Assembly: GCA_964551625.1 (NCBI GenBank)
Contig: CAZKDW010000001.1
Coordinates: 13,115 to 40,823, forward strand
Length of the DNA: 27,709 nucleotides
Reading direction: 5' to 3'
DNA from: an uncultured Thermotogae bacterium
Lineage (GTDB): Bacteria > Bipolaricaulota > Bipolaricaulia > UBA7950 > UBA9294
In this document: piece by piece, positions 10,274-21,916 of the stretch
Numbering within the stretch: the first letter of the stretch is position 1
How the letters are laid out: every line of letters starts with the position of its first letter
The notes under the pieces: generated by a model
The model's input: the letters and a program-made list of their open reading frames with translations, nothing else
Database searches by the model: none
What the model was told of the DNA's origin: nothing
Translations under genes and position numbers: made by a program

Positions 10274-11104
10274 TCACGACGGCATCTCGTCTGGCATCTT
10301 CGAATGCTTCAACAAGAATCCAACAACTACCGTCAGAAATTCTCCTGCTCGTTCAAGAAATGCTCCATGTCCTGCATTCGGCAACGTGATGAATTCGCAC
10401 TGCGGAATTGCATCGTACATTTCCTCCATCAACCGCACCGGAGTGATCATGTCATCGTCAGCACCGATCAGCAGCGTCGGCATGCTAAGACCATTCAGAT
10501 CCTCGTCAGACACTCGAAACCCCATGGTGCTCCGGCACAATCGGCCAAACCCATCGAACCATTCCTTGGTCAACAGCGACTTGAACATCGCTTGTCGCTC
10601 GTGCAGCATGTCAAGGTTCTTAGCGTAGAACTCCCTCGAATAGATGAACGGAACAGCCAACTGAAAGAAACGTTCGCCATCATTTAGATTAGCGGCCACT
10701 TCCCAGGCACGTCCGATCTCGGCCAGATGATTCGAGATGTAGTGATTTGCGTTGGCGAGAGTCAGCGTTCGCACGCGATCCGGATGGGCGACAGCTACTC
10801 GCTGTGCCACTTGGCCGCCGTACGATAGTCCAACCAAATGCGCGTTCGGCAGTTCGAGCGTGTCAAGCAATCCGATAACGTCCTGCACGTGAACGTCAAG
10901 GCGATATTCTCCGTTCGCCTTCTGCGAACGTCCTTGGTCTCGAAGATCAATAAGAATGAGTCTGACATGACGCGACAGCACTGGAATATGCTGCGCCCAG
11001 CTGGCCGTGTTCATCATGATTCCGCTCAATAGGACGACTGGGTCGCCTTTTCCGTGCTCCTCATAATAAATCTCAAGATCGTCGTTCGATCTAAATGTCG
11101 CCAT
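10274..11104 (-). CDS. Cytoplasmic alpha/beta hydrolase (PcaD/enol-lactonase-like esterase)
   Basis: DLRDQGRS, nucleophile elbow GLSYGG, GADDDMITP (acid), AGHG (His). No signal peptide. Confidence 0.88.
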   Translation of the reverse strand: MATFRSNDDLEIYYEEHGKGDPVVLLSGIMMNTASWAQHIPVLSRHVRLILIDLRDQGRSQKANGEYRLDVHVQDVIGLLDTLELPNAHLVGLSYGGQVAQRVAVAHPDRVRTLTLANANHYISNHLAEIGRAWEVAANLNDGERFFQLAVPFIYSREFYAKNLDMLHERQAMFKSLLTKEWFDGFGRLCRSTMGFRVSDEDLNGLSMPTLLIGADDDMITPVRLMEEMYDAIPQCEFITLPNAGHGAFLERAGEFLTVVVGFLLKHSKMPDEMPS

Positions 11105-11909
11105 ATTCGCCCACCTTCTGTTGCGTATCTTGCTGTCTTGTGGTCTTCAGTCGTCCGTCCGCCAGCTGCTCGCGCACCAAGTCCGCAAACGTACTGTCAG
11201 CAAAGCATTCGGAAAATCGGTCGGACTCCACACTCAGACCGGCTGCAAAGGGCAGGTGCTGCGATGCGTAGATCGCCTGTTTGGCGGCAGTGAACGCATG
11301 TGCGGAGATGGCCTTCGTTCGCTCGGCTAACGCTGAGGCTCGATTCTCGACGTCTGCGGAGGCAACCATCTCATGGATCAGCCCAGCGTTCAGTGCTTCG
11401 CGCGCTTTGTACAATCTTCCAGTGAGGATCATCTCGGTGGCTCTGCCGATGCCGATCACGCGTGGCAAACGCTGTGTTCCACCACCCCCGGGGATAATGC
11501 CAAGCTTCACCTCGGGTAGGCCGATCCGCGACGCATCACTCGCCACTCGCAGATCGCAGGCCAAGGCGAACTCCAGTCCACCACCGAAACACAATCCATC
11601 AATTGCTGCAATCAGCAACAATGGACTTGCCTCCATGAGGTTGAATAACCCTTGAATACGAACCGAGAAGTCACGCGCCTCAGCAGGAGACAGTTGAACC
11701 ATCTCAACTCCGTCCGCTCCGCCGATGAAATGCGTCTCGCCAGCACCCTGATAGACGATCGCGCGAGCACCAGACGCTTCAGCAACCTCAAGATGCCCCT
11801 GCAACTGCACGAGAGTCTCGGAGTCCAACGAATTTCGGTCTCCTGGACGATTGATGGTCACCCAATGGACATCATCCGCTTCGCGAATCACTAGGTTCGA
11901 GAATCCCAT
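11091..11909 (-). CDS. Enoyl-CoA hydratase (crotonase family)
   Basis: FIGGAD oxyanion loop, CFGGGLE and LPEVKLGIIPGGGGTQRL with both catalytic Glu present. ATG 11909, or GTG 11948 overlapping the upstream stop. Confidence 0.92.
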   Translation of the reverse strand: MGFSNLVIREADDVHWVTINRPGDRNSLDSETLVQLQGHLEVAEASGARAIVYQGAGETHFIGGADGVEMVQLSPAEARDFSVRIQGLFNLMEASPLLLIAAIDGLCFGGGLEFALACDLRVASDASRIGLPEVKLGIIPGGGGTQRLPRVIGIGRATEMILTGRLYKAREALNAGLIHEMVASADVENRASALAERTKAISAHAFTAAKQAIYASQHLPFAAGLSVESDRFSECFADSTFADLVREQLADGRLKTTRQQDTQQKVGEYGDI

Positions 11910-11947
11910 GCTTACTCGATGTCCTTCGCCCCGGTGTCTCTCGTCCA

Positions 11948-12718
11948 CTAGATCACCAAGCCTCCATTCGGACTGAGCACCTGTCCGGTGAAGAAGTCAG
12001 CTCCTGGACTGGCCAGAAACCAGATGAGTTCGGCGATCTCTTGCGGCAATGCAAATCGCTTCAGCGGAGTCCGTCGCACAATTTGCTCCTTGAACCGGTC
12101 ATCCATTGCATCAAGCAGTGGCGTTTGTACATATCCCGGGGCAACCGCGTTGACTCGCAAGTTGTACCGTGCCACTTCCCGGGCAAGCGTCTTGGTCAGC
12201 TGGACCACGCCCGCCTTGCTTGCACTGTAGTGAAGTGCTCCAGGAGTCGGCATAAGCGCCGAGACTGAGCTAAGGTTGACGATCCGGCCGCATTTATATC
12301 CCTTCATCCAACGCACCGCTTCACGACAGCAGTAGAACGTACCGCTCAGAGTGACGCTGATCATTCGATCCCATTGGTCGTCAGTCATGTCTTCTATGAA
12401 CGTTGCCGCATCGAGAATACCCACACTGTTCACTAGGAGATCAAGCCGCTCGCAGCGATCCTGGAGGATGCCGAACAGCGCAGCGACCTGCATGCTGTCC
12501 GAGACGTCAGTTCGATACGCCTCCGCCTTGCCTCCGTCGCGCACAATCTCCGCAGCAACTTGTTTCGTGCACTCAAGATCTACATCGGCAATGAAGACGC
12601 GCACGCCGTCGCTAGCCAGTCTCATGGCCACCGCACGCCCGATTCCTGATGCGCCACCAGTCACTAGGGCGGTTTCGCAGATGTAGGTCTTCGTCACTTC
12701 CTTCATTTCCGACATCAC
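11948..12718 (-). CDS. Classical SDR oxidoreductase (FabG-like, predicted NAD(H)-preferring)
   Basis: TGGASGIG, IADVD (acidic residue at the end of beta2), NSVG, LSS, YSASK, VNAVAPG, DGG-like NGG tail. Confidence 0.9.
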   Translation of the reverse strand: MMSEMKEVTKTYICETALVTGGASGIGRAVAMRLASDGVRVFIADVDLECTKQVAAEIVRDGGKAEAYRTDVSDSMQVAALFGILQDRCERLDLLVNSVGILDAATFIEDMTDDQWDRMISVTLSGTFYCCREAVRWMKGYKCGRIVNLSSVSALMPTPGALHYSASKAGVVQLTKTLAREVARYNLRVNAVAPGYVQTPLLDAMDDRFKEQIVRRTPLKRFALPQEIAELIWFLASPGADFFTGQVLSPNGGLVI

Positions 12719-13464
12719 GCCTCCAGGAACCTGTTGTACGCTTTCTTCGACTGCGCTGTTGGGAAGATGACGAACGGTTCCTTCCCCATCTGCTCAATCG
12801 TTCCTTCGGCCACGTCCTCGGCAGAGTCCATGTGCCCGCGTAGCCGATCAGCGACTTGGCTCATCGCCTCAGCGCCAACTCCGACTCCGAAGAACCCGGT
12901 ATCCGTCAAATGTGGGCACACGACCTGGACGGAAATGTCTGAGTCCTCAAGTTCTCGTCGAAGCCCTCGACTCATTCCTACCACCGCATGTTTGGCTGCC
13001 AGATAGGCCGAAACGTTCGGTGCGTGAGCAATCAATCCACCAGTGGAAGCAATGTTGACGATCATCCCATGCCCAGCATCCCTCATCGCGGGAAGCACCT
13101 GCTGAGTCATCCGGAAGACTGCGATGACGTTCACATCGAATAATGAGCGCAGATCGGACTCCTCTATTTCGTTGAACGGCGCATAAAGTCCGAATCCCGC
13201 GTTGTTGATCAGAACATCGATCCGCCCCCACTCATTAAGGACATGCTCGACGAGTTGTCGACGTTCGTCGTCGTTACTCACGTCACACGGGATCGTCAAG
13301 GTCTCACCCGCACATGAACCAGCAACCTTGGCCAACTGCTCGGCGCGACGCGCGGCGAGAACCACGCGAGCCCCTCGTTTCGAACAGGCGACAGCCAGTG
13401 CGGCACCAATCCCGGAACTGGCTCCGGTGATGATCACGGTTTTCTCCGTCAATCGATTCGTCAT
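12715..13464 (-). CDS. Classical SDR oxidoreductase (predicted NADP(H)-preferring)
   Basis: TGASSGIG, AARR, NNAG, IAS, YLAAK. ATG 13464, or GTG 13470. Confidence 0.88.
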   Translation of the reverse strand: MTNRLTEKTVIITGASSGIGAALAVACSKRGARVVLAARRAEQLAKVAGSCAGETLTIPCDVSNDDERRQLVEHVLNEWGRIDVLINNAGFGLYAPFNEIEESDLRSLFDVNVIAVFRMTQQVLPAMRDAGHGMIVNIASTGGLIAHAPNVSAYLAAKHAVVGMSRGLRRELEDSDISVQVVCPHLTDTGFFGVGVGAEAMSQVADRLRGHMDSAEDVAEGTIEQMGKEPFVIFPTAQSKKAYNRFLEA

Positions 13465-13491
13465 CCGCACCTTCCGCCTCGGTTCATGCTC

Positions 13492-14772
13492 CTAGAATCC
13501 ACCGTATGCCTCACGCTCCCATTCCATCTCGGCGTTGGAGTAGAGCTCGTACGTCCCTGCTCCGAATACGCTGTTCAACGCCTGAGCTGTCGGCTCATCC
13601 GATGCCTCAGCGAACGCAGCGATAAGCTGCATCGTTTCAGCCGGATGATGAATCGGAAAGCCATGGTCGTAGCCATGGTCTGCATGAAGCATGACCGCGG
13701 TCACCGTCGCGCCCGCGCGTCGCAAGTCGTACTTGGTGTTCTTCGTGATGGAGTCATCGATGACCAGATCGCCCCGCCATGAGGTTCGATCCGTCTGTGC
13801 CTTGACCAGAAGAACCCGCTTCCCTTCGAAGGCTGCCGTTCGATCTGCCCCTGGGATCGAGACTGAGGTCCCGTCACGATTCGTGTGTTGAAGGATGCTG
13901 GAAGTCGCATTGAAGCGATGGCTCGCATACAACGATTCAGGCATGTAGACGGTGGACAACACATCCTCGATTGCGTTCAAGTACCCCGAATTGTCCAAGT
14001 ATGTTGGTTCTTTGGCGATCCCTAGCAGCGGATCGAATTTGAGCACATCGTTAAAGACAACCATGTTCCAAATGACGGACGCATTCTTGGCGGTGCGATT
14101 CTCTCCACCCCATGATCTCTGATGAAAGGCGACTGCAGATTGCGAGTCAGCCCAGTCTCCAGTGCTGTACGACAACCCAGTCTCTGGATCGTCGCCGACC
14201 GTGTTACCGGCGAATAGCACACGAACACCGCGCGTTCCAATACCGGCAAGAGAAACGATGCCTGAATACTTTGAGGGATCGAGGTCAACCATCAATTGAG
14301 CCACACCGAATCCCATCGAGTGGCCGACAAGAGTGATGTTCCCGGCCTGTAGAAGCGGATCAGTTTGAACGATATCGGCGAAGTCTCGGGCAAAATCATC
14401 AAGGGATTCAATCGGATGCACATAGGTGGAGCCACCACTGCCACGGTAGTCAAAGGCGTAGAACGTGTATGCTTCTCGAATCTCCTTGGTCGCTTCTACG
14501 AGCGCAAGAAGAGGTTCGAAGCTACGCCCGGAGCAGTTGTTGCCAGCAAGAAGCACCACAGGCGAGGGCCCGCAACCGGCCATCCTCACATGAATCGTCT
14601 CGCCACTACTCACCTGAAACAGCTGGGCCTCCTTCGATTCCTGTACATCCTGTCGCCCGCATGACGCAAGAAGAACCGCGCACAGCAGTCCGGCCGCTAG
14701 GACTCTACCATACTGCCTTTGCGAGGGCACTCTCGGCATGTTGTTCATCCATTCAACGATCCTTCGCTTCAC
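13492..14772 (-). CDS. Predicted lipoprotein alpha/beta hydrolase (esterase/depolymerase-like)
   Basis: Basic n-region, hydrophobic stretch and lipobox LLAS-C (Cys codon 14659-14661). DYRGSGGS, GHSMG (14311-14325), GDLVI, DHG. The start could also be ATG 14748 or 14739. Confidence 0.82.
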   Translation of the reverse strand: MKRRIVEWMNNMPRVPSQRQYGRVLAAGLLCAVLLASCGRQDVQESKEAQLFQVSSGETIHVRMAGCGPSPVVLLAGNNCSGRSFEPLLALVEATKEIREAYTFYAFDYRGSGGSTYVHPIESLDDFARDFADIVQTDPLLQAGNITLVGHSMGFGVAQLMVDLDPSKYSGIVSLAGIGTRGVRVLFAGNTVGDDPETGLSYSTGDWADSQSAVAFHQRSWGGENRTAKNASVIWNMVVFNDVLKFDPLLGIAKEPTYLDNSGYLNAIEDVLSTVYMPESLYASHRFNATSSILQHTNRDGTSVSIPGADRTAAFEGKRVLLVKAQTDRTSWRGDLVIDDSITKNTKYDLRRAGATVTAVMLHADHGYDHGFPIHHPAETMQLIAAFAEASDEPTAQALNSVFGAGTYELYSNAEMEWEREAYGGF

Positions 14773-15510
14773 CTACGTGATCAGACCGCCGTCGACGCTC
14801 AGCACAGCACCATGAACGAATGCCGCTTCGTCGGACGCGAAGAAGAGGTAGATGTTGGCGACATCGCGCGCACTACCTAGGCGTCCAAGTGGCGTTTTGC
14901 TACGCATCAAATCGAGCACCTTCTCTGGCACGCCTTCAGTCATTTCTGTTTGAATGAATCCCGGGGCAACTGCATTCACGTTGATCCCCTTCTTTCCCAA
15001 TTCACGTGCCCAGACCTTGGTCATACCAATGACGCCCGCTTTGGTAGCAGCGTAATTCGTCTGTCCAAAATTGCCATATAGCCCGACAACTGACGACACA
15101 TTGATGATTCGACCGCTGCCCTGCTCAATCATGTGCGGGACCACTGCTTGGGTTGTGTTGAATGTCCCCTTCAAGTTGACATCTACGACCAGATCGAAGT
15201 CAGCTTCTGTCAGCTTGACAAGTTGGCCATCGCGAACGATGCCTGCGTTGTTCACCAAGATGTCAATTCGTCCGAATTCCTTCACTGCCGAGCTAGCCAT
15301 CGCTTGACACGTTTCTCGATCAGTGACATCCGTTCGAATGAACAGCGCCTTGCCGCCACCGGCCACAATCTCCGCAGCGACTGTCTCAGCATGGCTATCC
15401 ACGTCAGCCACGACAATCTTGGCACCCTCGCTGGCGAACAACAGTGCCGCTTCTCGACCAATTCCCCGGCCTGCTCCAGTAATAACGGCAACTTTCCCCT
15501 CTAAACGCAT
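14773..15510 (-). CDS. fabG: 3-oxoacyl-(ACP/CoA) reductase, FabG/PhaB-like SDR
   Basis: TGAGRGIG, VADVD, NNAGIVRD, SSVVGLYGNFGQTNYAATKAGVIGMTK, VNAVAPGFIQTEM, SVDGG. ATG 15510 follows GGAGGAG. It may act on CoA esters rather than ACP. Confidence 0.88.
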   Translation of the reverse strand: MRLEGKVAVITGAGRGIGREAALLFASEGAKIVVADVDSHAETVAAEIVAGGGKALFIRTDVTDRETCQAMASSAVKEFGRIDILVNNAGIVRDGQLVKLTEADFDLVVDVNLKGTFNTTQAVVPHMIEQGSGRIINVSSVVGLYGNFGQTNYAATKAGVIGMTKVWARELGKKGINVNAVAPGFIQTEMTEGVPEKVLDLMRSKTPLGRLGSARDVANIYLFFASDEAAFVHGAVLSVDGGLIT

Positions 15511-15526
15511 ACGCAACTCCTCCCTT

Positions 15527-16546
15527 CTAAACCCATCGGAACAGCGCCGTTGATAGAACGAAGCCCGCTCCCGATGTACAGAACGCCACCAGATCTCCTG
15601 AAACGATTCGGCCTTGCTCAAGCGCGTCATATAGCGCCATGAACACCGACGCAGAACCGGCGTACCCGAACCGATCGGCTACCCAGTGTGTTTTCTCCAT
15701 CGACAAACCCAGCTTTTCCAGCGTTGCTGTTACAGTTCCTAGTTCAACCTGATTCATCAGAACCAGCTTTAGTTCGTCGGGTGTATGGCCAACCGCCGCC
15801 ATCGTCTTGCGCAGCAGGTCAGGCCAGCGCGCAATATTGAAGTCAGCCGGGACGCGATGTGCGTTTTCGTGAAATCGAAGATACTGTTGCCCCGTCTCGA
15901 TCATGTCTGCAGTTGGCGGCCGGCCGGTCCCAAGATAGATACCGTACGTGTCCCAATAGCTCCCTTCAGTCAGCATCTTGGAGGAGAGGTAGCCATCCTC
16001 CTCCGACGGAGAAAGAACAACGGCTCCGGCACCGTCACTGAACAGCATTGAGAGAACCTTGGACGCGGATTCGCTGTAGGGTCTCCAGTCAAGCCATTTC
16101 GTCATTCCGTATGCCCCAATAACCATGACGTGATTAATCGCCGGATCGAGTGCGATATAGTGAGATCCGATTGCCAATGCTATTGTCTCATCAGTACATG
16201 CAGCGTTAATGTCAAACACTCCTGCATTCGTTGCGCCCAACTTGTGCTGGATTACCGCTGATGTCGGTGGACTGATGAAGTCCGGGGTGTCCGTGGCAAG
16301 GATGATCAGATCAAGGTCATCAGGCGTCAGCCCCGCACGTTCTAATGCTTCGCGGGCCGCGTGAACCGCCATGTCAGATGTTGCTTCATCTGCGGCAGCA
16401 CGATAGCGAACGCCGATTCCCTTGCCGTCAAGATATGACTCGACGTCGTAGTTCATCATTTCGCCCAGTTCTGCGTTCGTAATCCTCTCTTGAGGAAGAT
16501 ACATTCCCACGCCTGAGATTCTTGCGGCTCTGATCTGCTTCTCCAT
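15527..16546 (-). CDS. KAS III (FabH)-fold protein with non-canonical active site
   Basis: ISGVGMYLP, ATDTPDFISP, DINAAC (Cys117), LFSDGAGAVVL, FCTSGAG. The HQAN site reads NQVE and the GNTS site reads GYAG. Confidence 0.85.
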   Translation of the reverse strand: MEKQIRAARISGVGMYLPQERITNAELGEMMNYDVESYLDGKGIGVRYRAAADEATSDMAVHAAREALERAGLTPDDLDLIILATDTPDFISPPTSAVIQHKLGATNAGVFDINAACTDETIALAIGSHYIALDPAINHVMVIGAYGMTKWLDWRPYSESASKVLSMLFSDGAGAVVLSPSEEDGYLSSKMLTEGSYWDTYGIYLGTGRPPTADMIETGQQYLRFHENAHRVPADFNIARWPDLLRKTMAAVGHTPDELKLVLMNQVELGTVTATLEKLGLSMEKTHWVADRFGYAGSASVFMALYDALEQGRIVSGDLVAFCTSGAGFVLSTALFRWV

Positions 16547-16548
16547 AC

Positions 16549-16998
16549 CTATTCAGTCCTCTCTTCGGCTAGAATCACGGTCGCTCGTCCATCTCGAAGA
16601 ACCTCAGGGCGAGGTTCAAGCCTCATACCTACCTGAATTGCATCAGCGGGAATACCACGGATCCATCCCATAACACGAAGTCCGTTGTCCATTTCCACAA
16701 TGCCCACTGGAGAAGGCTGATACGCGTACGATGAACATGGCGCGGTTCTCGACAAGTCCGGTGTGAAATGCTCTGGGGTGACGAACACGGTGGTGTATGA
16801 CAGCAACCGTCCCGTACCAGTTACGCACACCCATCCGAACTCAGTACCGAAACAATCGGGGCAGTCGCTCCGAGGCGGGTACTGGATCTTCCCACACGTC
16901 TCACATTTGGAGCCGAGCAGCTCTCCCCGTTCGAGACCATCCACAAATCCGCTGACCTTTGTATCTTGAACCAATAAACTGAAGTCTTTGAATTCCAT
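16549..16998 (-). CDS. DUF35 Zn-ribbon/OB-fold protein (thiolase partner)
   Basis: CETCG...YPPRSDCPDC, GTGRLLSYTTV, VGIVEMDNG. ATG 16998 follows GGGAGG; GTG 17004 is an alternative start. Confidence 0.92.
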   Translation of the reverse strand: MEFKDFSLLVQDTKVSGFVDGLERGELLGSKCETCGKIQYPPRSDCPDCFGTEFGWVCVTGTGRLLSYTTVFVTPEHFTPDLSRTAPCSSYAYQPSPVGIVEMDNGLRVMGWIRGIPADAIQVGMRLEPRPEVLRDGRATVILAEERTE

Positions 16999-17009
16999 TC
17001 CCACCTCCC

Positions 17010-18170
17010 TTATGAGCGACTGAAGACATGCACAGCTGAATGCTGGCCATTGCCACCGACGTTATGCGATAGACCGATTTCAGCGCCCTGAACCTGACGT
17101 CCGGGATCTGCTTCTCCACGCAATTGCTTGGCAATCTCCACTGCCATCGAAACACCTGTGGTGCCAATCGGATGACCTTTTGACTTGAGCCCGCCATCGA
17201 CATTGACTGGAGTCTCTCCACCGATGTAGGTCTGCCGATCCTCGACCCAAGGGCCACCTTCACCTCTCGGGCAGAAGCCCAGATCCTCGTAAGCCACAAT
17301 TTCAGCGATCGTGAAGCAATCATGGACGACGGCCACATCAACCTGTTTGGCGTCAATTCCGGCCATTTCATAGGCCTGATCAGCCGCTTCGACTGTCGCA
17401 CCAAGCGTGGTCAGATCATCGCGATGAGCCAGCGCTAGCGAGCCAGTCCCTAGGCCGAGGCCACTCATCCAGATTGGATCCTTGCTCAGACGTTTGGCCA
17501 TCTTCTCAGACGCGAGCAAAATGGCAGCCGCTCCGTCGGAGATCAGGCAGCAGTCGTATAGCTTGAGGGGGTCGGCGACCATGAAAGAGTTCATTGCCTT
17601 TTCAAGGGTAATCTCTTTCTGCATGTGGGCGTACGGATTCATCGCGCCATAGTGATGGTTCTTCACCGCGACAGCCGCAAGTTGTTCTTGCGTCGTTCCA
17701 TACTTCGCCATATGCGCGCGGGCAATCATTGCGTAGTAGCCGGGGAATGTCATGCCGAAGGGATATTCCCACAGGAAATCGCCGGCGCGGCCAAGCACTT
17801 CGGTCGCCATGGACGTCGGGACCTCTGTCATCTTTTCAGCGCCAACAACCAAAACGAGGTCGGCTAGGCCAGATGCGATATTCATCCATCCGGCGCGAAC
17901 CGCCATGCTACCAGACGCACATGCAGCCTCTACGCGAAAGCTCGGTTTGGGGTGAAATCCAAGATAGTCGACAACCTGAGCCGTCGGTTGGAGAGCAAAA
18001 CTAAGCTCATCCGAAGCTACACTGACAATCATCGACTCCACATCCGCCAATGGAATGTCAGCATCCTCAAGGCAAGCCTTCACCGCCTCGAATGCCAGTT
18101 CACGCAGCGACGCATCGGATCGAATCCCGAAGCGGCCTTGCCCAACGCCAATGATTCCGACTTTCCCCAT
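17010..18170 (-). CDS. Thiolase, SCP2/archaeal type
   Basis: VEAACASG (Cys84), VGAEKM, AVKNH, ISDGAAA, HDCFTIAE, NVDGGLKSKGHPIG, HNVGG. AAGGAG RBS. Confidence 0.93.
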   Translation of the reverse strand: MGKVGIIGVGQGRFGIRSDASLRELAFEAVKACLEDADIPLADVESMIVSVASDELSFALQPTAQVVDYLGFHPKPSFRVEAACASGSMAVRAGWMNIASGLADLVLVVGAEKMTEVPTSMATEVLGRAGDFLWEYPFGMTFPGYYAMIARAHMAKYGTTQEQLAAVAVKNHHYGAMNPYAHMQKEITLEKAMNSFMVADPLKLYDCCLISDGAAAILLASEKMAKRLSKDPIWMSGLGLGTGSLALAHRDDLTTLGATVEAADQAYEMAGIDAKQVDVAVVHDCFTIAEIVAYEDLGFCPRGEGGPWVEDRQTYIGGETPVNVDGGLKSKGHPIGTTGVSMAVEIAKQLRGEADPGRQVQGAEIGLSHNVGGNGQHSAVHVFSRS

Positions 18171-18229
18171 TTCAACTCCTTGAATCTCCGTGCTTCGTCG
18201 ACACAGCCAATTGGCGGCGTCTCATTTTA

Positions 18230-18250
18230 TGACACCTGACTCAGGTCTCA
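18230..18250. promoter_or_regulatory. Candidate TetR operator 1
   Basis: TGACACCTGACTCAGGTCTCA, a near-perfect 21-bp palindrome that touches the -10 box and covers the predicted transcription start of the thiolase operon. Confidence 0.8.
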
Positions 18251-18279
18251 CCATAGCATGAATCGTAGCGACTCGTCAA
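18250..18279 (-). promoter_or_regulatory. Sigma70-type promoter of the 16-gene operon
   Basis: Minus strand: TTGACG (18279-18274) N18 TATGGT (18255-18250), with an extended -10 TG. Confidence 0.7.
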
Positions 18280-18395
18280 TACCTACTTCACAGTAATTGC
18301 CTCGATTAGGCTTGAATAGCAAGCTATAGCGCCTGTAGCTCGGCGCTTGGGTTTACGCCAAATCTATTCTTGTGCTCGCAGCTCCGTTTTTTCTC

Positions 18396-18416
18396 TGAGA
18401 GCTGATTCATCTCTCA
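18396..18416. promoter_or_regulatory. Candidate TetR operator 2
   Basis: TGAGAGCTGATTCATCTCTCA, an exact fit to TGAGA-N2-TGA-N-TCA-N2-TCTCA, 46 bp beyond the tetR stop. Confidence 0.72.
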
Positions 18417-18462
18417 TTTTCTGCCATCGGCTAGAAATAGTTCATGAACAGAGTAGATGCGA

Positions 18463-19698
18463 TTAGACCAACTGTAGAGACATGCCGCGCTCAAGGATGT
18501 CGAGCAAATCAGCAAGCATGTCATCGGAAATCGTGCCTTCCGCCCCGCTGAAGAAAGCCCACAATGCAACGGAGTGTCCAATCCCAAGAAGTGCGTAGGC
18601 GAGAGGTTCAAGTGCCAGAGCACGAATTTCTCCACGCTCCATACCACGATGCATTCCTCTCATATAGCCCTTGGCCAACCGTTCGTAATACCAACGTCCT
18701 GTGTCATGATCAACCAATTCCGCCTCGCGAAGAATCCTGTAGGCTCCCTGATGCATAGCAATGAATCGAAAGAAAGTTCGGAATCCTTCCCGTTCAATAT
18801 CGCGGCGATCCTCAAGACCTGCTAGCGCCTGCTGCTCATCAGATCGAAATCTGCGGTTGATCTCGCGAAGCACCTCAACAAACACAGCTACTTTGCTCGG
18901 GAAATAGAGATAGAAAGTGCCCTGTGCCACTCCAGAGAGATAAGTTATTCCGCTGATGGGCGTTTGATAGAAACCTGCCTGTCCAAACAGCTGCTCCGCC
19001 GCCATGAGTAGGGACTGCTTCGTTGCCTCGCCGCCCTGAAGCTCTTCAACCTCTTCAAGGGATGGAATAGGAACTGCTGACTGAGTCATCTTGGTTGCTC
19101 GCTCAGATCCCGAATCAAAACCTCTCAAGATGATCGAATCGAGAGTCTGTAGAACGCCCTCGTTCAGTGAACCGGGTTCCCAAAGGATGTAGCGCATAAC
19201 AGTGAACTCAACGATCCCGAGCAAGACGTATGCTGCCATTCTCGCATCAATCGGTCTCAACTCACCTGACTGGATGCCAAGTCGGACAATCCGCTGCAAT
19301 GCATCGGCTATTTTTGCTCGGAAATGCCGATGGATCTTCATCTGCATCGATTCTGATCCCCGGCCAACTCGGTAAAGCGTAGTCTCCCTCTCCACAAAGG
19401 CCAGCACGCGGCGATAGGCACAGATCAGAGCCTCTGGCCCTGTCTTCCCTTCGTTGCCTACTGCCTCTATCTGCTCGCACAGGGCCGCCTCAAGCCGCTC
19501 CACCAATAGGACAAACACTTCTTCCTTGCTTTCGAAGTATCGATAGAAAGTCCCGTTGGCTAGGCCTGCACGCTGACAAATCTCCGAGACTGATGCGACG
19601 TAATAGCCTCGCTCGCTAAATATGCTTTCAGCAGCTCGAAGCAGTGCCTCACGCGTTTTCTGAGCTTTGGGCAGATAGGGCAATTGGCGTTTTGTCAC
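18463..19698 (-). CDS. Tandem (two-repeat) TetR/AcrR-family regulator
   Basis: Two complete TetR units: TREALLRAAESIFSERGY...GLANGTFYRYFESKEEVF and TKQSLLMAAEQLFGQAGF...GVAQGTFYLYFPSKVAVF, each with its own C-terminal domain (GELR.../GEIR...AY.LLGI). GTG 19698 preferred; ATG 19764/19761 are alternatives. Confidence 0.9.
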   Translation of the reverse strand: MTKRQLPYLPKAQKTREALLRAAESIFSERGYYVASVSEICQRAGLANGTFYRYFESKEEVFVLLVERLEAALCEQIEAVGNEGKTGPEALICAYRRVLAFVERETTLYRVGRGSESMQMKIHRHFRAKIADALQRIVRLGIQSGELRPIDARMAAYVLLGIVEFTVMRYILWEPGSLNEGVLQTLDSIILRGFDSGSERATKMTQSAVPIPSLEEVEELQGGEATKQSLLMAAEQLFGQAGFYQTPISGITYLSGVAQGTFYLYFPSKVAVFVEVLREINRRFRSDEQQALAGLEDRRDIEREGFRTFFRFIAMHQGAYRILREAELVDHDTGRWYYERLAKGYMRGMHRGMERGEIRALALEPLAYALLGIGHSVALWAFFSGAEGTISDDMLADLLDILERGMSLQLV

Positions 19699-19778
19699 GT
19701 CTGTTTCCTTCCTCACTATCTGGACCGGGGTCTCTGAGTAGCTAATCTGTGGATGACCCATCATCCCAACACCAACGA

Positions 19779-19808
19779 ATCGTACGCGCTAAGTGAACGT
19801 CAGATCAA
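19779..19808 (-). promoter_or_regulatory. Candidate promoter of tetR
   Basis: Minus strand: TTGATC (19808-19803) N18 TACGAT (19784-19779). Confidence 0.5.
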
Positions 19809-19830
19809 ACCCTCAAACAACGCCTAAAAA

Positions 19831-19851
19831 TGAGAGGTTAGTCAGGTCTCA
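19831..19851. promoter_or_regulatory. Candidate TetR operator 3
   Basis: TGAGAGGTTAGTCAGGTCTCA, one mismatch to the consensus, lying between the divergent tetR and acs promoters. Confidence 0.7.
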
Positions 19852-19886: not shown

Positions 19887-19915
19887 TTGCCGAGAACCTT
19901 CTCATGCGATAGTAT
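19887..19915 (+). promoter_or_regulatory. Sigma70-type promoter of acs
   Basis: TTGCCG (19887-19892) N17 TAGTAT (19910-19915), followed by a CAGGAGG RBS. Confidence 0.65.
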
Positions 19916-19957: not shown

Positions 19958-21916
19958 GTGCCGGATGCAATGCAGTGGGTCCAGAAAGACCCCAACAAAG
20001 AGAACGTTTTTTGGCCAAACGAGGAACTGAAGAAGAAAGCGTGGGTTTCAGATGAGGCTATCTACGGAAAAGCCAATTCTGATCCTGAAGCATTCTGGGC
20101 CGAACAGGCCGAGAATCTTCATTGGTTCAAAAAATGGGACAAAACCTATGACTTTTCACCGAATGCGTACAAGTGGTTCGTTGGCGGAAAGACAAACCTG
20201 TCCTACAACTCCCTAGACCGCCAGATTGAAGCGGGCAAGGGCGACAATATCGCCCTTATTTGGGAACCCGAGCCGATCGAAGAAGAGGCTGTCAAACTGA
20301 CGTACAAGCAGCTCCACGAAAGCGTCAGCAAGTTCGCCAATGCGCTGAAAGATCTCGGCGTGAAGAAGGGCGACGCCGTCGGCATCTATCTCCCAATGAT
20401 TCCTGAAGCTGTTATCGCTATGCAGGCCTGCGCCCGAATTGGCGCGCCTCACTCTGTCGTGTTCTCAGCATTCAGCCCGGAATCGCTCCGCGATCGCATG
20501 GTCGACTGTGATGCCAAAGTCGTTATCACCGCCGACGGATACTATCGCCGCGGCAAGGCTATCAACTTGAAGAAGAACGCAGATGCTGGCGTAGAAAATT
20601 CGCCTGTTCAGCATCTCGTCGTCGTCAAACGCACAGGCGCAGATGTTGGCATGACCGAAGGTCGCGACGTCTGGTACCACGACATCGTAGCAAAGGCTTC
20701 GGCCGATTGTCCCGCCGAACAGCTCGATTCCGAAGATCTCTCGTTCCTACTCTATACATCGGGAACGACAGGCAAGCCCAAGGGAATCATGCATACCACA
20801 GGCGGCTATGCTGTTCAGGCCAACACGACAGCCAAGTGGAATTTCGACATGCACGAAGGCGATGTATTCTGGTGCACAGCTGACGTAGGATGGATCACTG
20901 GCCACACGTACATTAACTATGGTCCGCTCATGAATGGCATAACCACGTTGCTGTATGAAGGCTCTCCCGATGCGCCAGACAACGGCCGCTTCTGGGCGAT
21001 TATCGAAAAGCACAAAGTAACCCAACTCTATACCGCTCCGACAGCCATTCGCATGTTCGTCAAATGGGGCGACGAGTGGCCGAAGAAGTACGACCTTTCT
21101 TCGCTGCGCCTGTTGGGAACTGTTGGTGAACCGATCAACGTCGACGCTTGGATGTGGTATTTCAACGTCATCGGCGGCGGACGCTGCCCAATCATCGACA
21201 CCTGGTGGCAGACGGAAACAGGTGCCAATATGGTTAACAACCTGCCTGGCATCGGACCATTCGTGCCGACTGTTGCAGGAAAGACATTCCCAGGGATTCT
21301 GGGCGACATTCTCGATTCTGGCGGAACCCCGCTTGGACCGAATGAAGGCGGCTACTTGGCCATCTTCAACCCCTTCCCACCTGCACTTACGCGCGGCATC
21401 TATGGAGATATGGAACGCTTCCAGGCTCAGTACTTCGCTGAGTATGGCCCGGAGCGTTACTTTACCTCTGACGGCGCACGCAAGGACGAAAACGGCAATA
21501 TTCGTATTACTGGCCGTGTCGACGACGTCATGAACGTCGCCGGACATCGACTGGCTACGGCAGAAGTCGAATCCGCATTGGCCCAGAATAACAAGGTCAG
21601 CGAAGTCGCCGTCGTTTCTCGCCCGCACGACCTCAAGGGCGAAGTTCCAGTCGCTTTCGTCCTTTTGCGCAAGGGCGTCGAAGGCAGTGACGAGATTGTC
21701 AAGGAACTGATGGCCACCGTTAATCAGGTTATTGGCCCCACAGGCCGACCAGACCAGATTGTGTTTGCAACGGACGTTCCGAAGACGCGCTCTGGCAAGA
21801 TCATGCGCCGTGTGCTCAAGGCGCTCGTTCGCCACGAGCCCGTTGGCGATCTGATGACGCTTCAGAATCCAGAGTCCGTTGAAGAGCTTAAAGGGCTCGT
21901 GGATTACAAGGGATAA
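19958..21916 (+). CDS. acsA: Acetyl-CoA synthetase (AMP-forming)
   Basis: WFVGGKTNLSYNSLDR, LYTSGTTGKPKG, WCTADVGWITGH, DTWWQTETG, GRVDDVMNVAGHRL, PKTRSGKIMRR. GTG start after CAGGAGG. Confidence 0.96.
   Translation: MPDAMQWVQKDPNKENVFWPNEELKKKAWVSDEAIYGKANSDPEAFWAEQAENLHWFKKWDKTYDFSPNAYKWFVGGKTNLSYNSLDRQIEAGKGDNIALIWEPEPIEEEAVKLTYKQLHESVSKFANALKDLGVKKGDAVGIYLPMIPEAVIAMQACARIGAPHSVVFSAFSPESLRDRMVDCDAKVVITADGYYRRGKAINLKKNADAGVENSPVQHLVVVKRTGADVGMTEGRDVWYHDIVAKASADCPAEQLDSEDLSFLLYTSGTTGKPKGIMHTTGGYAVQANTTAKWNFDMHEGDVFWCTADVGWITGHTYINYGPLMNGITTLLYEGSPDAPDNGRFWAIIEKHKVTQLYTAPTAIRMFVKWGDEWPKKYDLSSLRLLGTVGEPINVDAWMWYFNVIGGGRCPIIDTWWQTETGANMVNNLPGIGPFVPTVAGKTFPGILGDILDSGGTPLGPNEGGYLAIFNPFPPALTRGIYGDMERFQAQYFAEYGPERYFTSDGARKDENGNIRITGRVDDVMNVAGHRLATAEVESALAQNNKVSEVAVVSRPHDLKGEVPVAFVLLRKGVEGSDEIVKELMATVNQVIGPTGRPDQIVFATDVPKTRSGKIMRRVLKALVRHEPVGDLMTLQNPESVEELKGLVDYKG

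Follow-up and report, generated by a model that had tools for sequence, protein, structure and literature searches.

The FadR proteins of Bacillus subtilis and Bacillus halodurans (YsiA; PDB 5GPC and 3WHB) are acyl-CoA sensors of the TetR family, which repress fatty-acid genes and are released from DNA by long-chain acyl-CoA (PMC5397183). The box that they recognize, WTGAATGAMTANTCATTCAN, consists of two TGA-N8-TCA repeats offset by 4 bp, and it is bound by two dimers, for which no protein-protein contact is required (PMC5397183). The operators of the FadR of Sulfolobus acidocaldarius (SaFadR, Saci_1107; PDB 6EL2 and 6EN8) have the form TTGA-N8-TCAA and take up one or two dimers, the number being set by a G-C pair 11 positions away; in the complexes Gly48 contacts the G, and the two Tyr51 residues are 37 A apart on the DNA (PMC6449355). 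The authors of that work cite the QacR-type pair of dimers, which is bound to overlapping inverted repeats from different faces of the helix (PMC6449355). A “tandem” TetR, in which two TetR units are joined in a single chain, is represented by Mce3R (Rv1963c; PDB 9B7Y) of Mycobacterium tuberculosis, whose non-identical HTHs read a site of 25 bp that is not a palindrome, each site taking up one monomer, and whose dimers bridge two DNA duplexes (PMC11667970). Mce3R is the only single-chain double TetR with a solved structure, and a literature search for tandem TetRs returned only the work on Actinomycetes and Mce3R.

The window analysed in the present work, a stretch of 27,709 nucleotides from an uncultured member of the Bipolaricaulota, contains a locus that can be compared with each of these systems. 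Its putative regulated operon (10274..18170, minus strand), which is assigned from domain matches and from synteny with tetR in orthologues, encodes in order a thiolase, a DUF35/ChsH2 OB-fold protein, a KASIII-like condensing enzyme, an SDR, an alpha/beta hydrolase, two SDRs, an enoyl-CoA hydratase and a second alpha/beta hydrolase, so that the genes under predicted control are acyl-CoA enzymes. Three palindromic sites flank tetR, the first of them lying on the thiolase promoter. Matches to the 21-bp pattern TGAGANNTGANTCANNTCTCA occur in the window at 18230-18250 (site 1, one mismatch), 18396-18416 (site 2, no mismatch) and 19831-19851 (site 3, one mismatch), and the list stays at three even when three mismatches are allowed. 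Shuffling gives expected chance counts of 0.01 at two or fewer mismatches and 0.30 at three or fewer, and none of 100 shuffles produced three matches. Scored with a position weight matrix (PWM) that was built from the sites of other loci only, the three sites reach 31.3, 28.9 and 22.7 bits respectively, while the next-ranked 21-mer of the window reaches 3.6 bits; because of this gap, the count in the window can be set at exactly three. The earlier note had reported three intergenic copies at these coordinates and no other full copy in the window, and these statements are borne out by the pattern matches, the shuffles, the independent PWM and the distances to the thiolase, tetR and acs gene ends that are given below. 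Its description of the sites as A/T-flanked holds only in part: site 2 has T-runs on both sides, but sites 1 and 3 are bordered by an A/T run on just one. The sequences around the three copies show no similarity to one another, and a longer repeat element is therefore ruled out.

In sequence, the motif is the TGA-N8-TCA unit of the FadR-type TetRs in a new arrangement: a 14-bp inverted repeat (bases 1-14) overlaps a second one (bases 8-21) at an offset of 7 bp, and in each of them G and C are 11 bp apart (G2/C13 and G9/C20). The 8-bp separation of TGA and TCA is that of the Sulfolobus FadR sites TTGATTATAATGTCAA and TTGATGCAATGGTCAA. The Bacillus FadR box is likewise a pseudo-palindrome of about 18-21 bp made from two overlapping TGA-N8-TCA repeats, but its offset is 4 bp (TGAATGA...TCATTCA) as against 7 bp in the window (TGAGAnnTGA.TCAnnTCTCA); because the offsets differ, the two cannot be aligned as one motif, and the window sites do not conform to the Bacillus consensus. 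SaFadR, an archaeal homodimer, has a 16-bp central operator with an optional second dimer on one side only, whereas in the window system the symmetric 21-bp double operator is the rule, and two diverged TetR units are fused. The earlier note had not recognized the motif as a described one; this applies to the 7-bp-offset arrangement, while the TGA-N8-TCA unit itself is known from characterized FadR-type TetR operators. Papers on eukaryotic AP-1 were the sole result of a literature search for TetR together with TGANTCA, and a similar motif may exist in RegPrecise.

The regulator itself (18463..19698, minus strand) is a tandem TetR of 411 aa, read from a GTG start at 19698 behind the RBS GAGGAAGG; its homologues have about 400-450 aa. 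It has two TetR_N HTH domains (Pfam), its halves are 29% identical to each other, and its AF2 model (pLDDT 89, pTM 0.87) is matched by Foldseek to Mce3R and SaFadR. Taken together, these results indicate two fused TetR units that fold as an intramolecular pseudo-dimer, in contrast to the homodimer of Bacillus FadR. The top full-length structural match is Mce3R (9B7Y; TMq 0.61, 414 columns). It, too, has two HTHs per chain, a single functional ligand domain, and a lipid-metabolism regulon whose control region contains two operator sites. The two proteins are nevertheless only 17% identical, with phmmer similarity limited to 60 residues of one HTH (E 3e-9), and sequence orthology was not found; nor does the window contain an asymmetric site of about 25 bp read by non-identical HTHs, since its sites are 21-bp palindromes and the recognition residues are shared. 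The tandem fusion is probably independent of that of Mce3R.

In its halves the protein is related to the FadR proteins, SaFadR being their best solved relative. The N-terminal half matches Bacillus FadR proteins at about E 1e-14. For the NCBIfam family FadR-Bac the protein scores 91 bits against a cutoff of 200; the top NCBIfam match, FasR, is also under its cutoff. The nearest solved relative of the C-terminal half is SaFadR (E 4e-25, about 30% identity, TM up to 0.94). Both HTHs share a G-T-F-Y-x-Y-F-x-x-K helix, in which G-T-F-Y is kept in both halves and G49/Y52 and G260/Y263 are invariant in 35 homologues; the DNA-contacting Gly48 and Tyr51 of SaFadR align with G260/Y263, for which G49/Y52 is the N-terminal equivalent. 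The ligand domain is well conserved in one half only, where Arg73, Arg86, Phe97 and Phe126 of SaFadR, the two arginines being ligands of the CoA phosphates, align with R285, R298, F309 and Y338, all invariant or nearly so in 35 tandem TetRs. The regulon of SaFadR, like the operon in the window, includes a thiolase/DUF35 pair and an SDR ketoacyl-CoA reductase, together with esterases.

The check suggested in the earlier note, a search for the motif upstream of orthologous clusters, had a positive outcome. The window shares the motif at the thiolase promoter with nine other distinct lineages of the Bipolaricaulota (TetR 45-80% identical), and one more lineage (L165) has a degenerate copy. The motif also adjoins tandem TetR genes in Thermotogota and Desulfobacterota MAGs, and single-domain TetR relatives have it immediately upstream in Trueperaceae, Actinomycetes, Ktedonobacteria, Bacillota and others; homologues of the operon genes also adjoin distant tandem TetRs. 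The close orthologue loci were picked individually, while scans of genome and metagenome collections for homologues gave mostly distant relatives (<=41% identity) among the matches listed. In 160 distant loci, the unchanged 21-bp pattern at two or fewer mismatches gives 27 matches within 350 bp of TetR-homologue genes, distributed over 26 loci, compared with only 9 in the remaining 893 kb; 200 permuted palindromes used as controls gave a mean of 0.03 near-gene matches and a maximum of 4, and a relaxed pattern is enriched 26-fold near TetR-homologue genes. Across phyla the sole constant neighbour of the motif is the TetR homologue, tandem or single-domain, while the other genes vary, and this homologue is therefore the best candidate binder. 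On comparative grounds, namely co-occurrence in orthologues and in distant loci, the earlier proposal that the sites are operators of the adjacent TetR is thus supported, and the three palindromes are very probably its DNA-binding sites. The sequence occurs in DNA metagenomes from salt-lake, marine and sediment environments only, and no RNA runs containing it were found.

Site 1 (18230..18250, minus strand, reading TGAGACCTGAGTCAGGTGTCA) precedes the thiolase ATG (18170, minus strand) by 59 bp. A predicted sigma-70-type promoter of the operon, obtained from a promoter scan and from conservation in orthologues, extends over 18250..18279 on the minus strand, with a -35 box TTGACG (18279-18274), an 18-bp spacer that ends in TGc (extended -10), and a -10 box TATGGT (18255-18250). 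Base 1 of site 1 is the final base of the -10 box, and the site spans the predicted transcription start, in agreement with the placement given in the earlier note. The start is predicted to lie 6-8 nt past position 18250, on the minus strand. Both hexamers and their spacing are kept in the orthologous loci L161, L163, L164, L166, L169, L171, L172, L174 and L176; more generally, TTGACN-N17/18-TAnnGT, with the last T of the -10 box serving as base 1 of the operator, describes 11 promoter-operators from ten Bipolaricaulota lineages, and the order of -35, -10 and operator recurs in distant Thermotogota and Desulfobacterota loci. This arrangement is the predicted position of a repressor over a transcription start, and among the three sites a clear repressor position is seen at site 1 only. 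An additional TGAGA (18220-18224) lies beside TAAAAT, a second promoter-like match; it is not retained in L161 or in the remaining orthologues, and TTGACG-18-TATGGT is preferred because it is conserved and the other is not. The promoters in this work are predictions from consensus and conservation in a host phylum that is uncultured. The tandem TetR appears to switch off the thiolase/acyl-CoA operon by occupying its promoter.

Site 2 (18396..18416, strand unassigned), the perfect copy, lies 46 bp beyond the tetR stop codon and 166 bp upstream of site 1 (centre to centre), and it has no associated promoter. Equivalents are present in L161/L162, L165 and L166/L167 and absent from L163, L164, L171, L174 and L176, so that about half of the lineages are without one; in L165, where the promoter-proximal site is degenerate, the site just 3' of tetR is retained. 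It probably acts as an auxiliary operator in those lineages that have it.

Site 3 (19831..19851, minus strand) is a weaker copy, with TAA in place of the inner TCA. It precedes the GTG of tetR (19698) by 132 bp and, in the opposite direction, that of acs (19958) by 106 bp; acs is an acetate-CoA ligase gene (19958..21916, plus strand; NCBIfam match over cutoff) that diverges from tetR. In an alignment of the regions between acs and tetR from the window, L161, L166 and L168, all that stays invariant of the site is one TGA-N8-TCA repeat of 14 bp (19831-19844; minus strand TGACTAACCTCTCA), together with the adjacent T-run. The predicted tetR promoter (19779..19808, minus strand) has a -35 box TTGATC (19808-19803), an 18-bp spacer and a -10 box TACGAT (19784-19779); it was read from the sequence and is under the threshold of the promoter scan (8/12 matches), and its -10 block CGTAC-AT does not vary in the four lineages. 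The predicted acs promoter, whose hexamers TTGCCG (-35, 19887-19892) and TAGTAT (-10, 19910-19915) were also read from the sequence, is invariant at both hexamers in the same alignment. Site 3 overlaps neither core promoter: it is about 22 bp upstream of the -35 box of tetR and 35 bp upstream of that of acs, and is therefore not explained by simple occlusion. In L172, acs has a full promoter-operator of its own, TTGACA-17-TAAAGT/GATACCTGAATCAGGTGTCA, in the repressor arrangement of site 1, while L171, where acs also diverges from tetR, has no site at all. The acs gene is likely a member of the regulon.

From the computed sites, with their statistics, conservation and positions, and from the architecture and relatives of the protein, a mechanism may be proposed in which binding, stoichiometry, repression and ligand are deduced rather than computed. 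Two single-chain pseudo-dimers would occupy each full site from different faces of the helix, because G and C in each repeat are 11 bp apart, the distance spanned by one TetR dimer, and one pseudo-dimer would occupy the half-conserved site 3; we infer this stoichiometry from the spacing arguments and by analogy. Such a reading of overlapping repeats resembles that of QacR-type operators, from which the window sites differ in sequence and length. The QacR operator has 28 bp, and QacR is a multidrug sensor, not an acyl-CoA sensor. Since site 1 extends from the last base of the -10 box over the transcription start, the repressor bound there would block RNA polymerase. An acyl-CoA, probably one made or consumed by the operon, would occupy the ligand domain that is conserved in the C-terminal half and spread the two recognition helices, so that the DNA is released; the conserved R285 and R298, together with the acyl-CoA enzymes in the regulon, point indirectly to acyl-CoA as the releasing ligand. 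Site 2 would act as an auxiliary upstream operator, and site 3 would couple acs and/or tetR itself to the same signal. This explanation as a whole, in which the sites are operators of a FadR-like tandem TetR with the pairing, repression, acyl-CoA release and roles of sites 2 and 3 just described, is considered likely to be correct.

The alternatives concern either the number of proteins on each site or the nature of the sites themselves. It is possible, but unlikely, that each 21-mer is a TetR operator bound by a single pseudo-dimer (or by a dimer of the single-domain relatives), with the nested TGA triplets reflecting indirect read-out or alternative registers. One-dimer binding is common among TetRs, SaFadR occupies some of its operators as one dimer, Mce3R binds as one monomer per site, and site 3 is conserved though reduced to one TGA-N8-TCA repeat; yet all four triplets are strongly conserved in the full sites (which were selected by pattern), the distances of 18 bp between the outer triplets and 4 bp between the inner ones do not suit one dimer, and the 11-bp spacing of the FadR complexes is obtained only from the pairings 1-14 and 8-21. 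That a different regulator reads the palindromes, tetR being nearby by coincidence or itself co-regulated by that factor, is highly improbable: the TetR is the candidate binder on comparative evidence and TGAnTCA is a common palindromic core, but the TetR homologue is the motif's only constant neighbour across phyla, and the half-site and spacing match solved FadR-type TetR-DNA complexes. Equally little weight is given to a role of the palindromes as hairpins in RNA or DNA, with site 2, for instance, serving as a terminator or read-through barrier of tetR, an idea prompted by its position after the tetR stop codon and by the expectation of some barrier where tetR and the operon are co-directional. 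The terminator scan made no call at any site, the tetR strand 3' of site 2 reads GAGAAAAAA and has no T-run, Rfam gave no match, and the folding energies are unremarkable (z-scores -0.55, -1.74, -0.67 and +0.37); an intrinsic terminator or structured RNA was rejected on these results. Conservation, moreover, concerns specific bases (TGA/TCA) and not compensatory pairing: complementarity at positions 6/16 and 7/15 is seen in only about one third of the sites.

For site 3, the TetR might instead have a dual function, as an activator or anti-activator of acs or tetR or by bridging with sites 1 and 2, and this is judged improbable, somewhat more so than single occupancy. Site 3 is centred outside both core promoters, about 69 bp ahead of the predicted start of tetR and about 82 bp ahead of that of acs; TetR-type activators exist, and FasR is the top, though sub-cutoff, NCBIfam match; dimers of Mce3R bridge two duplexes; and the distances between sites 1 and 2 (166, 168 and 222 bp) come close to integral multiples of a helical turn. 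Set against this, the tetR and acs promoters are only predictions, acs in L172 has the repressor arrangement instead, and three spacings are too few to establish phasing. A more elaborate version of the operator model, in which pairs of FadR-like tandem TetRs on 21-bp double operators, with one C-terminal sensor per chain, bridge in-phase operators 166-222 bp apart and shut off a thiolase/DUF35 CoA-dependent (ACP-independent) fatty-acid pathway along with acetate activation, is tentative, and is more doubtful than not. The FadR-like single-chain TetRs to which it refers would form an uncharacterized but widespread family (Bipolaricaulota, Thermotogota, Desulfobacterota), unlike Mce3R in binding symmetric sites in pairs. 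If this bridging version were true, these bacteria and the archaeon Sulfolobus would have the regulator-regulon pair in common.

The motif is a solid and fairly ordinary regulatory motif with an unusual layout. As an operator model that holds across phyla, TGA(G/C)A-NN-TGA-N-TCA-NN-T(C/G)TCA, it allows the regulon of an uncharacterized TetR clade of uncultured phyla to be mapped, and with such a map the genes of the thiolase/DUF35/KASIII acyl-CoA pathway of the Bipolaricaulota can therefore be defined. It provides a second and contrasting case of how a fused double TetR reads DNA, with a palindromic double site in place of the asymmetric site of Mce3R, and it indicates that the FadR-type TGA-N8-TCA unit recurs with different degrees of overlap (4 bp in Bacillus, 7 bp in the window). 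The promoter-operator is compact, at about 50 bp, and might be used as an acyl-CoA-responsive switch, provided that the ligand is confirmed.

The palindrome TGAGA-N2-TGA-N-TCA-N2-TCTCA, proposed in an earlier note as the binding site of the adjacent TetR, has three matches in the window, which is part of a Candidatus Bipolaricaulota (Acetothermia) genome of salt-lake metagenomic origin. A pattern scan allowing up to three mismatches finds only these: site 1 at 18230-18250 (one mismatch), site 2 at 18396-18416 (none) and site 3 at 19831-19851 (one). Dinucleotide-preserving shuffles give expected counts of 0.01 at up to two mismatches and 0.30 at up to three. Because the consensus had been derived from these same three sites, they were scored with a weight matrix built from the sites of other loci only, which assigns them 31.3, 28.9 and 22.7 bits respectively and leaves the runner-up 21-mer of the window at 3.6 bits. 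The three copies claimed in the earlier note are therefore genuine, and all are intergenic, as it had said. Their flanks are without similarity to one another, which rules out a longer repeat element as their source and identifies a short motif.

The earlier note had named absence of the motif upstream of orthologous clusters as a result that would refute its reading; the motif is present at orthologous and homologous clusters. In a distant set of 160 loci from many phyla, among the matches listed, with TetR relatives of at most 41% identity, the unchanged pattern at up to two mismatches has 27 matches within 350 bp of a TetR-homologue gene (in 26 of the loci) and nine in the remaining 893 kb, while for 200 permuted palindromes built on the same plan the mean is 0.03 near-gene matches and the maximum, 4, belongs to a near-variant of the motif. 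Permitting G or C at positions 4 and 18 yields 58 near matches against 20 elsewhere, a 26-fold enrichment, and several of the far matches precede homologous operon genes (at L006, L013 and L132, loci with distant TetR relatives). At the tandem-TetR loci (Thermotogota and Desulfobacterota MAGs) tetR is followed closely by the site, and the site by homologues of the window's SDR, enoyl-CoA hydratase, hydrolase and KASIII genes. For single-domain TetR relatives (Trueperaceae, Actinomycetes, Acidimicrobiia, Ktedonobacteria, Bacillota) the TetR gene follows the site at a distance of 20-100 bp, and the neighbouring genes encode a KASIII-like enzyme, acyl-CoA ligases, a MaoC dehydratase and a PHB-depolymerase-type esterase. 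To judge from these comparisons, the TetR homologue is the sole constant partner of the motif among the matches listed. In a Thermotogota MAG (L013:2160-2205, L132:2157-2177) two operators stand in tandem, 25 bp from start to start, upstream of an operon ending in an SDR and a tandem tetR; the regulator in these lineages is the last gene of its own regulated operon.

The window's tetR (18463-19698, minus strand) starts with GTG behind GAGGAAGG and encodes 411 aa with two TetR_N domains. Its reading frame reaches upstream to an ATG at 19764 (19699-19764); the start used by the gene callers and most homologues is the GTG at 19698, behind a strong RBS, and a predicted transcription start near 19772 would give a 74-nt leader. 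Downstream on the same strand (10274..18170) follow genes for a thiolase, a DUF35/ChsH2 OB-fold protein, a KASIII-like enzyme, an SDR, a lipoprotein-type alpha/beta hydrolase, two SDRs, an enoyl-CoA hydratase and another hydrolase, and divergent from tetR are those for an acetate-CoA ligase (acs, 19958..21916, plus strand) and an MFS transporter. The first three genes of the operon (15527-18170, minus strand) resemble the archaeal thiolase/DUF35/HMG-CoA-synthase complex and the thiolase/DUF35/SDR "archaeal fatty acid synthase"; unlike both, this trio is bacterial and its third subunit is FabH-like. The first SDR frame (14773-15630, minus strand), 285 aa as called mechanically, begins about 100 bp before the KASIII-like gene ends; since orthologues have only 245-254 aa, translation probably starts at the internal Met that directly precedes MRLEGKVAVITG. 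The 426-aa alpha/beta hydrolase (13492-14772, minus strand) carries a lipoprotein-type signal (…LLASCGRQ) and matches the intracellular short-chain PHA depolymerase model weakly (80 bits, cutoff 300); a protein of exported type is odd within an operon of otherwise cytoplasmic acyl-CoA enzymes.

Close orthologues (TetR 45-80% identical), retrieved singly from Bipolaricaulota lineages, supply a common layout for 11 promoter-operators (those of the window, L161, L163, L164, L166, L169, L171, L174 and L176, and the thiolase and acs promoters of L172): TTGAC(G/A/T/C), a spacer of 17-18 bp that often ends in TGc, and TA-n-n-G-T, the final T of which is operator base 1. The intergenic sequence around them has diverged. 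At distant tandem loci, too, -35, -10 and operator follow one another in this order. The window's predicted thiolase promoter (18279..18250, minus strand, TTGACG-18-TATGGT) was found independently by a promoter scan, and the earlier claim that site 1 overlaps the -10 box and transcription start of the operon is supported by this promoter. At about -7 to +14, site 1 is by sequence in the classic position for occlusion, and the operon would be repressed through it. Directly downstream (18220-18229, minus-strand sense), a TGAGA pentamer and a TAAAAT hexamer form a second promoter-like scan match, rejected as without conservation in orthologues. At L172:6251-6533 it is acs, not the thiolase operon, that follows tetR; 215 bp before its start codon, acs has a full promoter (TTGACA-17-TAAAGT) and a full operator (TGATACCTGAATCAGGTGTCA) of its own, and the divergent thiolase operon has a second operator. 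At L165:7234-7514 the promoter-proximal operator has decayed (TACGGTGAGAGTCCAGTCACATCG) and the site just downstream of tetR is retained (TGGGACCTGAATCAGCCGTCA, 21 bits), so that this may be a lineage of loosened control.

Site 2, the perfect copy, lies 46 bp past the tetR stop codon; among the lineages compared it has counterparts in L161/L162, L165 and L166/L167 and none in L163, L164, L171, L174 and L176. No promoter was found beside it, and a role as terminator was rejected, the tetR strand having no T-run and the hairpin a z-score of -0.55. The centres of sites 1 and 2 are 166, 168 and 222 bp apart in three lineages, close to an integral number of helical turns; this may point to co-operation or bridging, though three values are no proof. 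Site 3 is a weaker copy, with TAA in place of the inner TCA, and in an alignment of four lineages only 14 bp (TGACnnnnCTCTCA) and a T-run are invariant there. The conserved blocks beside it read as predicted promoters for acs (TTGCCG-17-TAGTAT) and tetR (TTGATC-18-TACGAT/TACCAT), the -35 boxes of which lie 35 and 22 bp from the site's ends. Site 3 lies upstream of both, so that simple occlusion would not explain its action. In L171 the divergent arrangement of acs and tetR comes without any site; given also the L172 acs with its own operator, acs appears to be a frequent, but not universal, member of the regulon.

The 21-mer resolves into four triplets, TGA (1-3), TGA (8-10), TCA (12-14) and TCA (19-21). 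Neither the outer pair, spaced 18 bp, nor the inner pair, spaced 4 bp, suits one TetR dimer; bases 1-14 and 8-21, in turn, each form TGA-N8-TCA with G and C 11 bp apart, exactly the unit of characterised FadR-type TetRs. The Bacillus FadR box WTGAATGAMTANTCATTCAN contains two such repeats offset by 4 bp, and the protein was crystallised as two dimers on 21 bp (PMC5397183). Sulfolobus FadR recognises TTGA-N8-TCAA (e.g. TTGATTATAATGTCAA), to which one dimer binds, or two if there is a G-C pair at a distance of 11 positions; the contact to the G of that pair is made by Gly48, and the Tyr51-Tyr51 distance is 37 A on DNA versus 43 A with lauroyl-CoA (PMC6449355). Both halves of the window TetR carry G-T-F-Y-x-Y-F-x-x-K, in which G49/Y52 and G260/Y263, invariant in 35 homologues, align with Gly48 and Tyr51. 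From the 11-bp G/C spacing, the FadR analogy and the conserved G-T-F-Y, we infer that each TGA-N8-TCA is read by one TetR pseudo-dimer and that the full site takes two, offset by 7 bp, which would be a new overlap of a known unit.

The AlphaFold model of the TetR is one compact, confident unit (pLDDT 89, pTM 0.87), the halves of which are 29% identical to each other. Over its full length the structure best resembles the tandem TetR Mce3R (9B7Y; TMq 0.61, 17% identity); taken singly, both halves come nearest to Sulfolobus FadR (6EN8/6EL2; TM up to 0.94, about 30% identity), then to Bacillus FadR. In the 35 homologues the ligand domain is far more conserved in the C-half (residues 201-411), where 12 positions are invariant and 12 near-invariant, than in the N-half (1-200), where the counts are 1 and 5. 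It is also the C-half to which single-domain relatives from a 50%-identity library almost always align, and this suggests one sensor domain per chain. Arg73 and Arg86 of Sulfolobus FadR, shown by mutation to bind CoA phosphate (PMC6449355), align with near-invariant R285 and invariant R298 of the C-half, and the tunnel residues Phe97 and Phe126 with invariant F309 and Y338; the Arg73 position is deleted in the N-half. Each chain would thus most likely hold one acyl-CoA sensor, as with Mce3R, which has a single ligand domain (PMC11667970). The gene content of the regulon matches an acyl-CoA ligand by analogy: the FadR-controlled cluster of Sulfolobus also holds a thiolase/DUF35 pair and an SDR reductase, the proteins of which form a CoA-dependent fatty-acid synthase complex (bioRxiv 10.1101/2024.07.05.601840).

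By this analogy the element would work like the operator of a FadR-type TetR. It is not the Bacillus FadR box, the offset being 7 bp rather than 4 and the window protein falling under the FadR family cutoff. Nor is the regulator an Mce3R orthologue, since its site is palindromic whereas that of Mce3R is asymmetric, and identity is 17%; the two TetR fusions are probably independent. No description of the exact 21-bp motif was found in the literature searched, the coverage of which is incomplete. The finding is correct and well supported by comparative evidence, if not surprising in principle, and the motif is useful for mapping the regulon.
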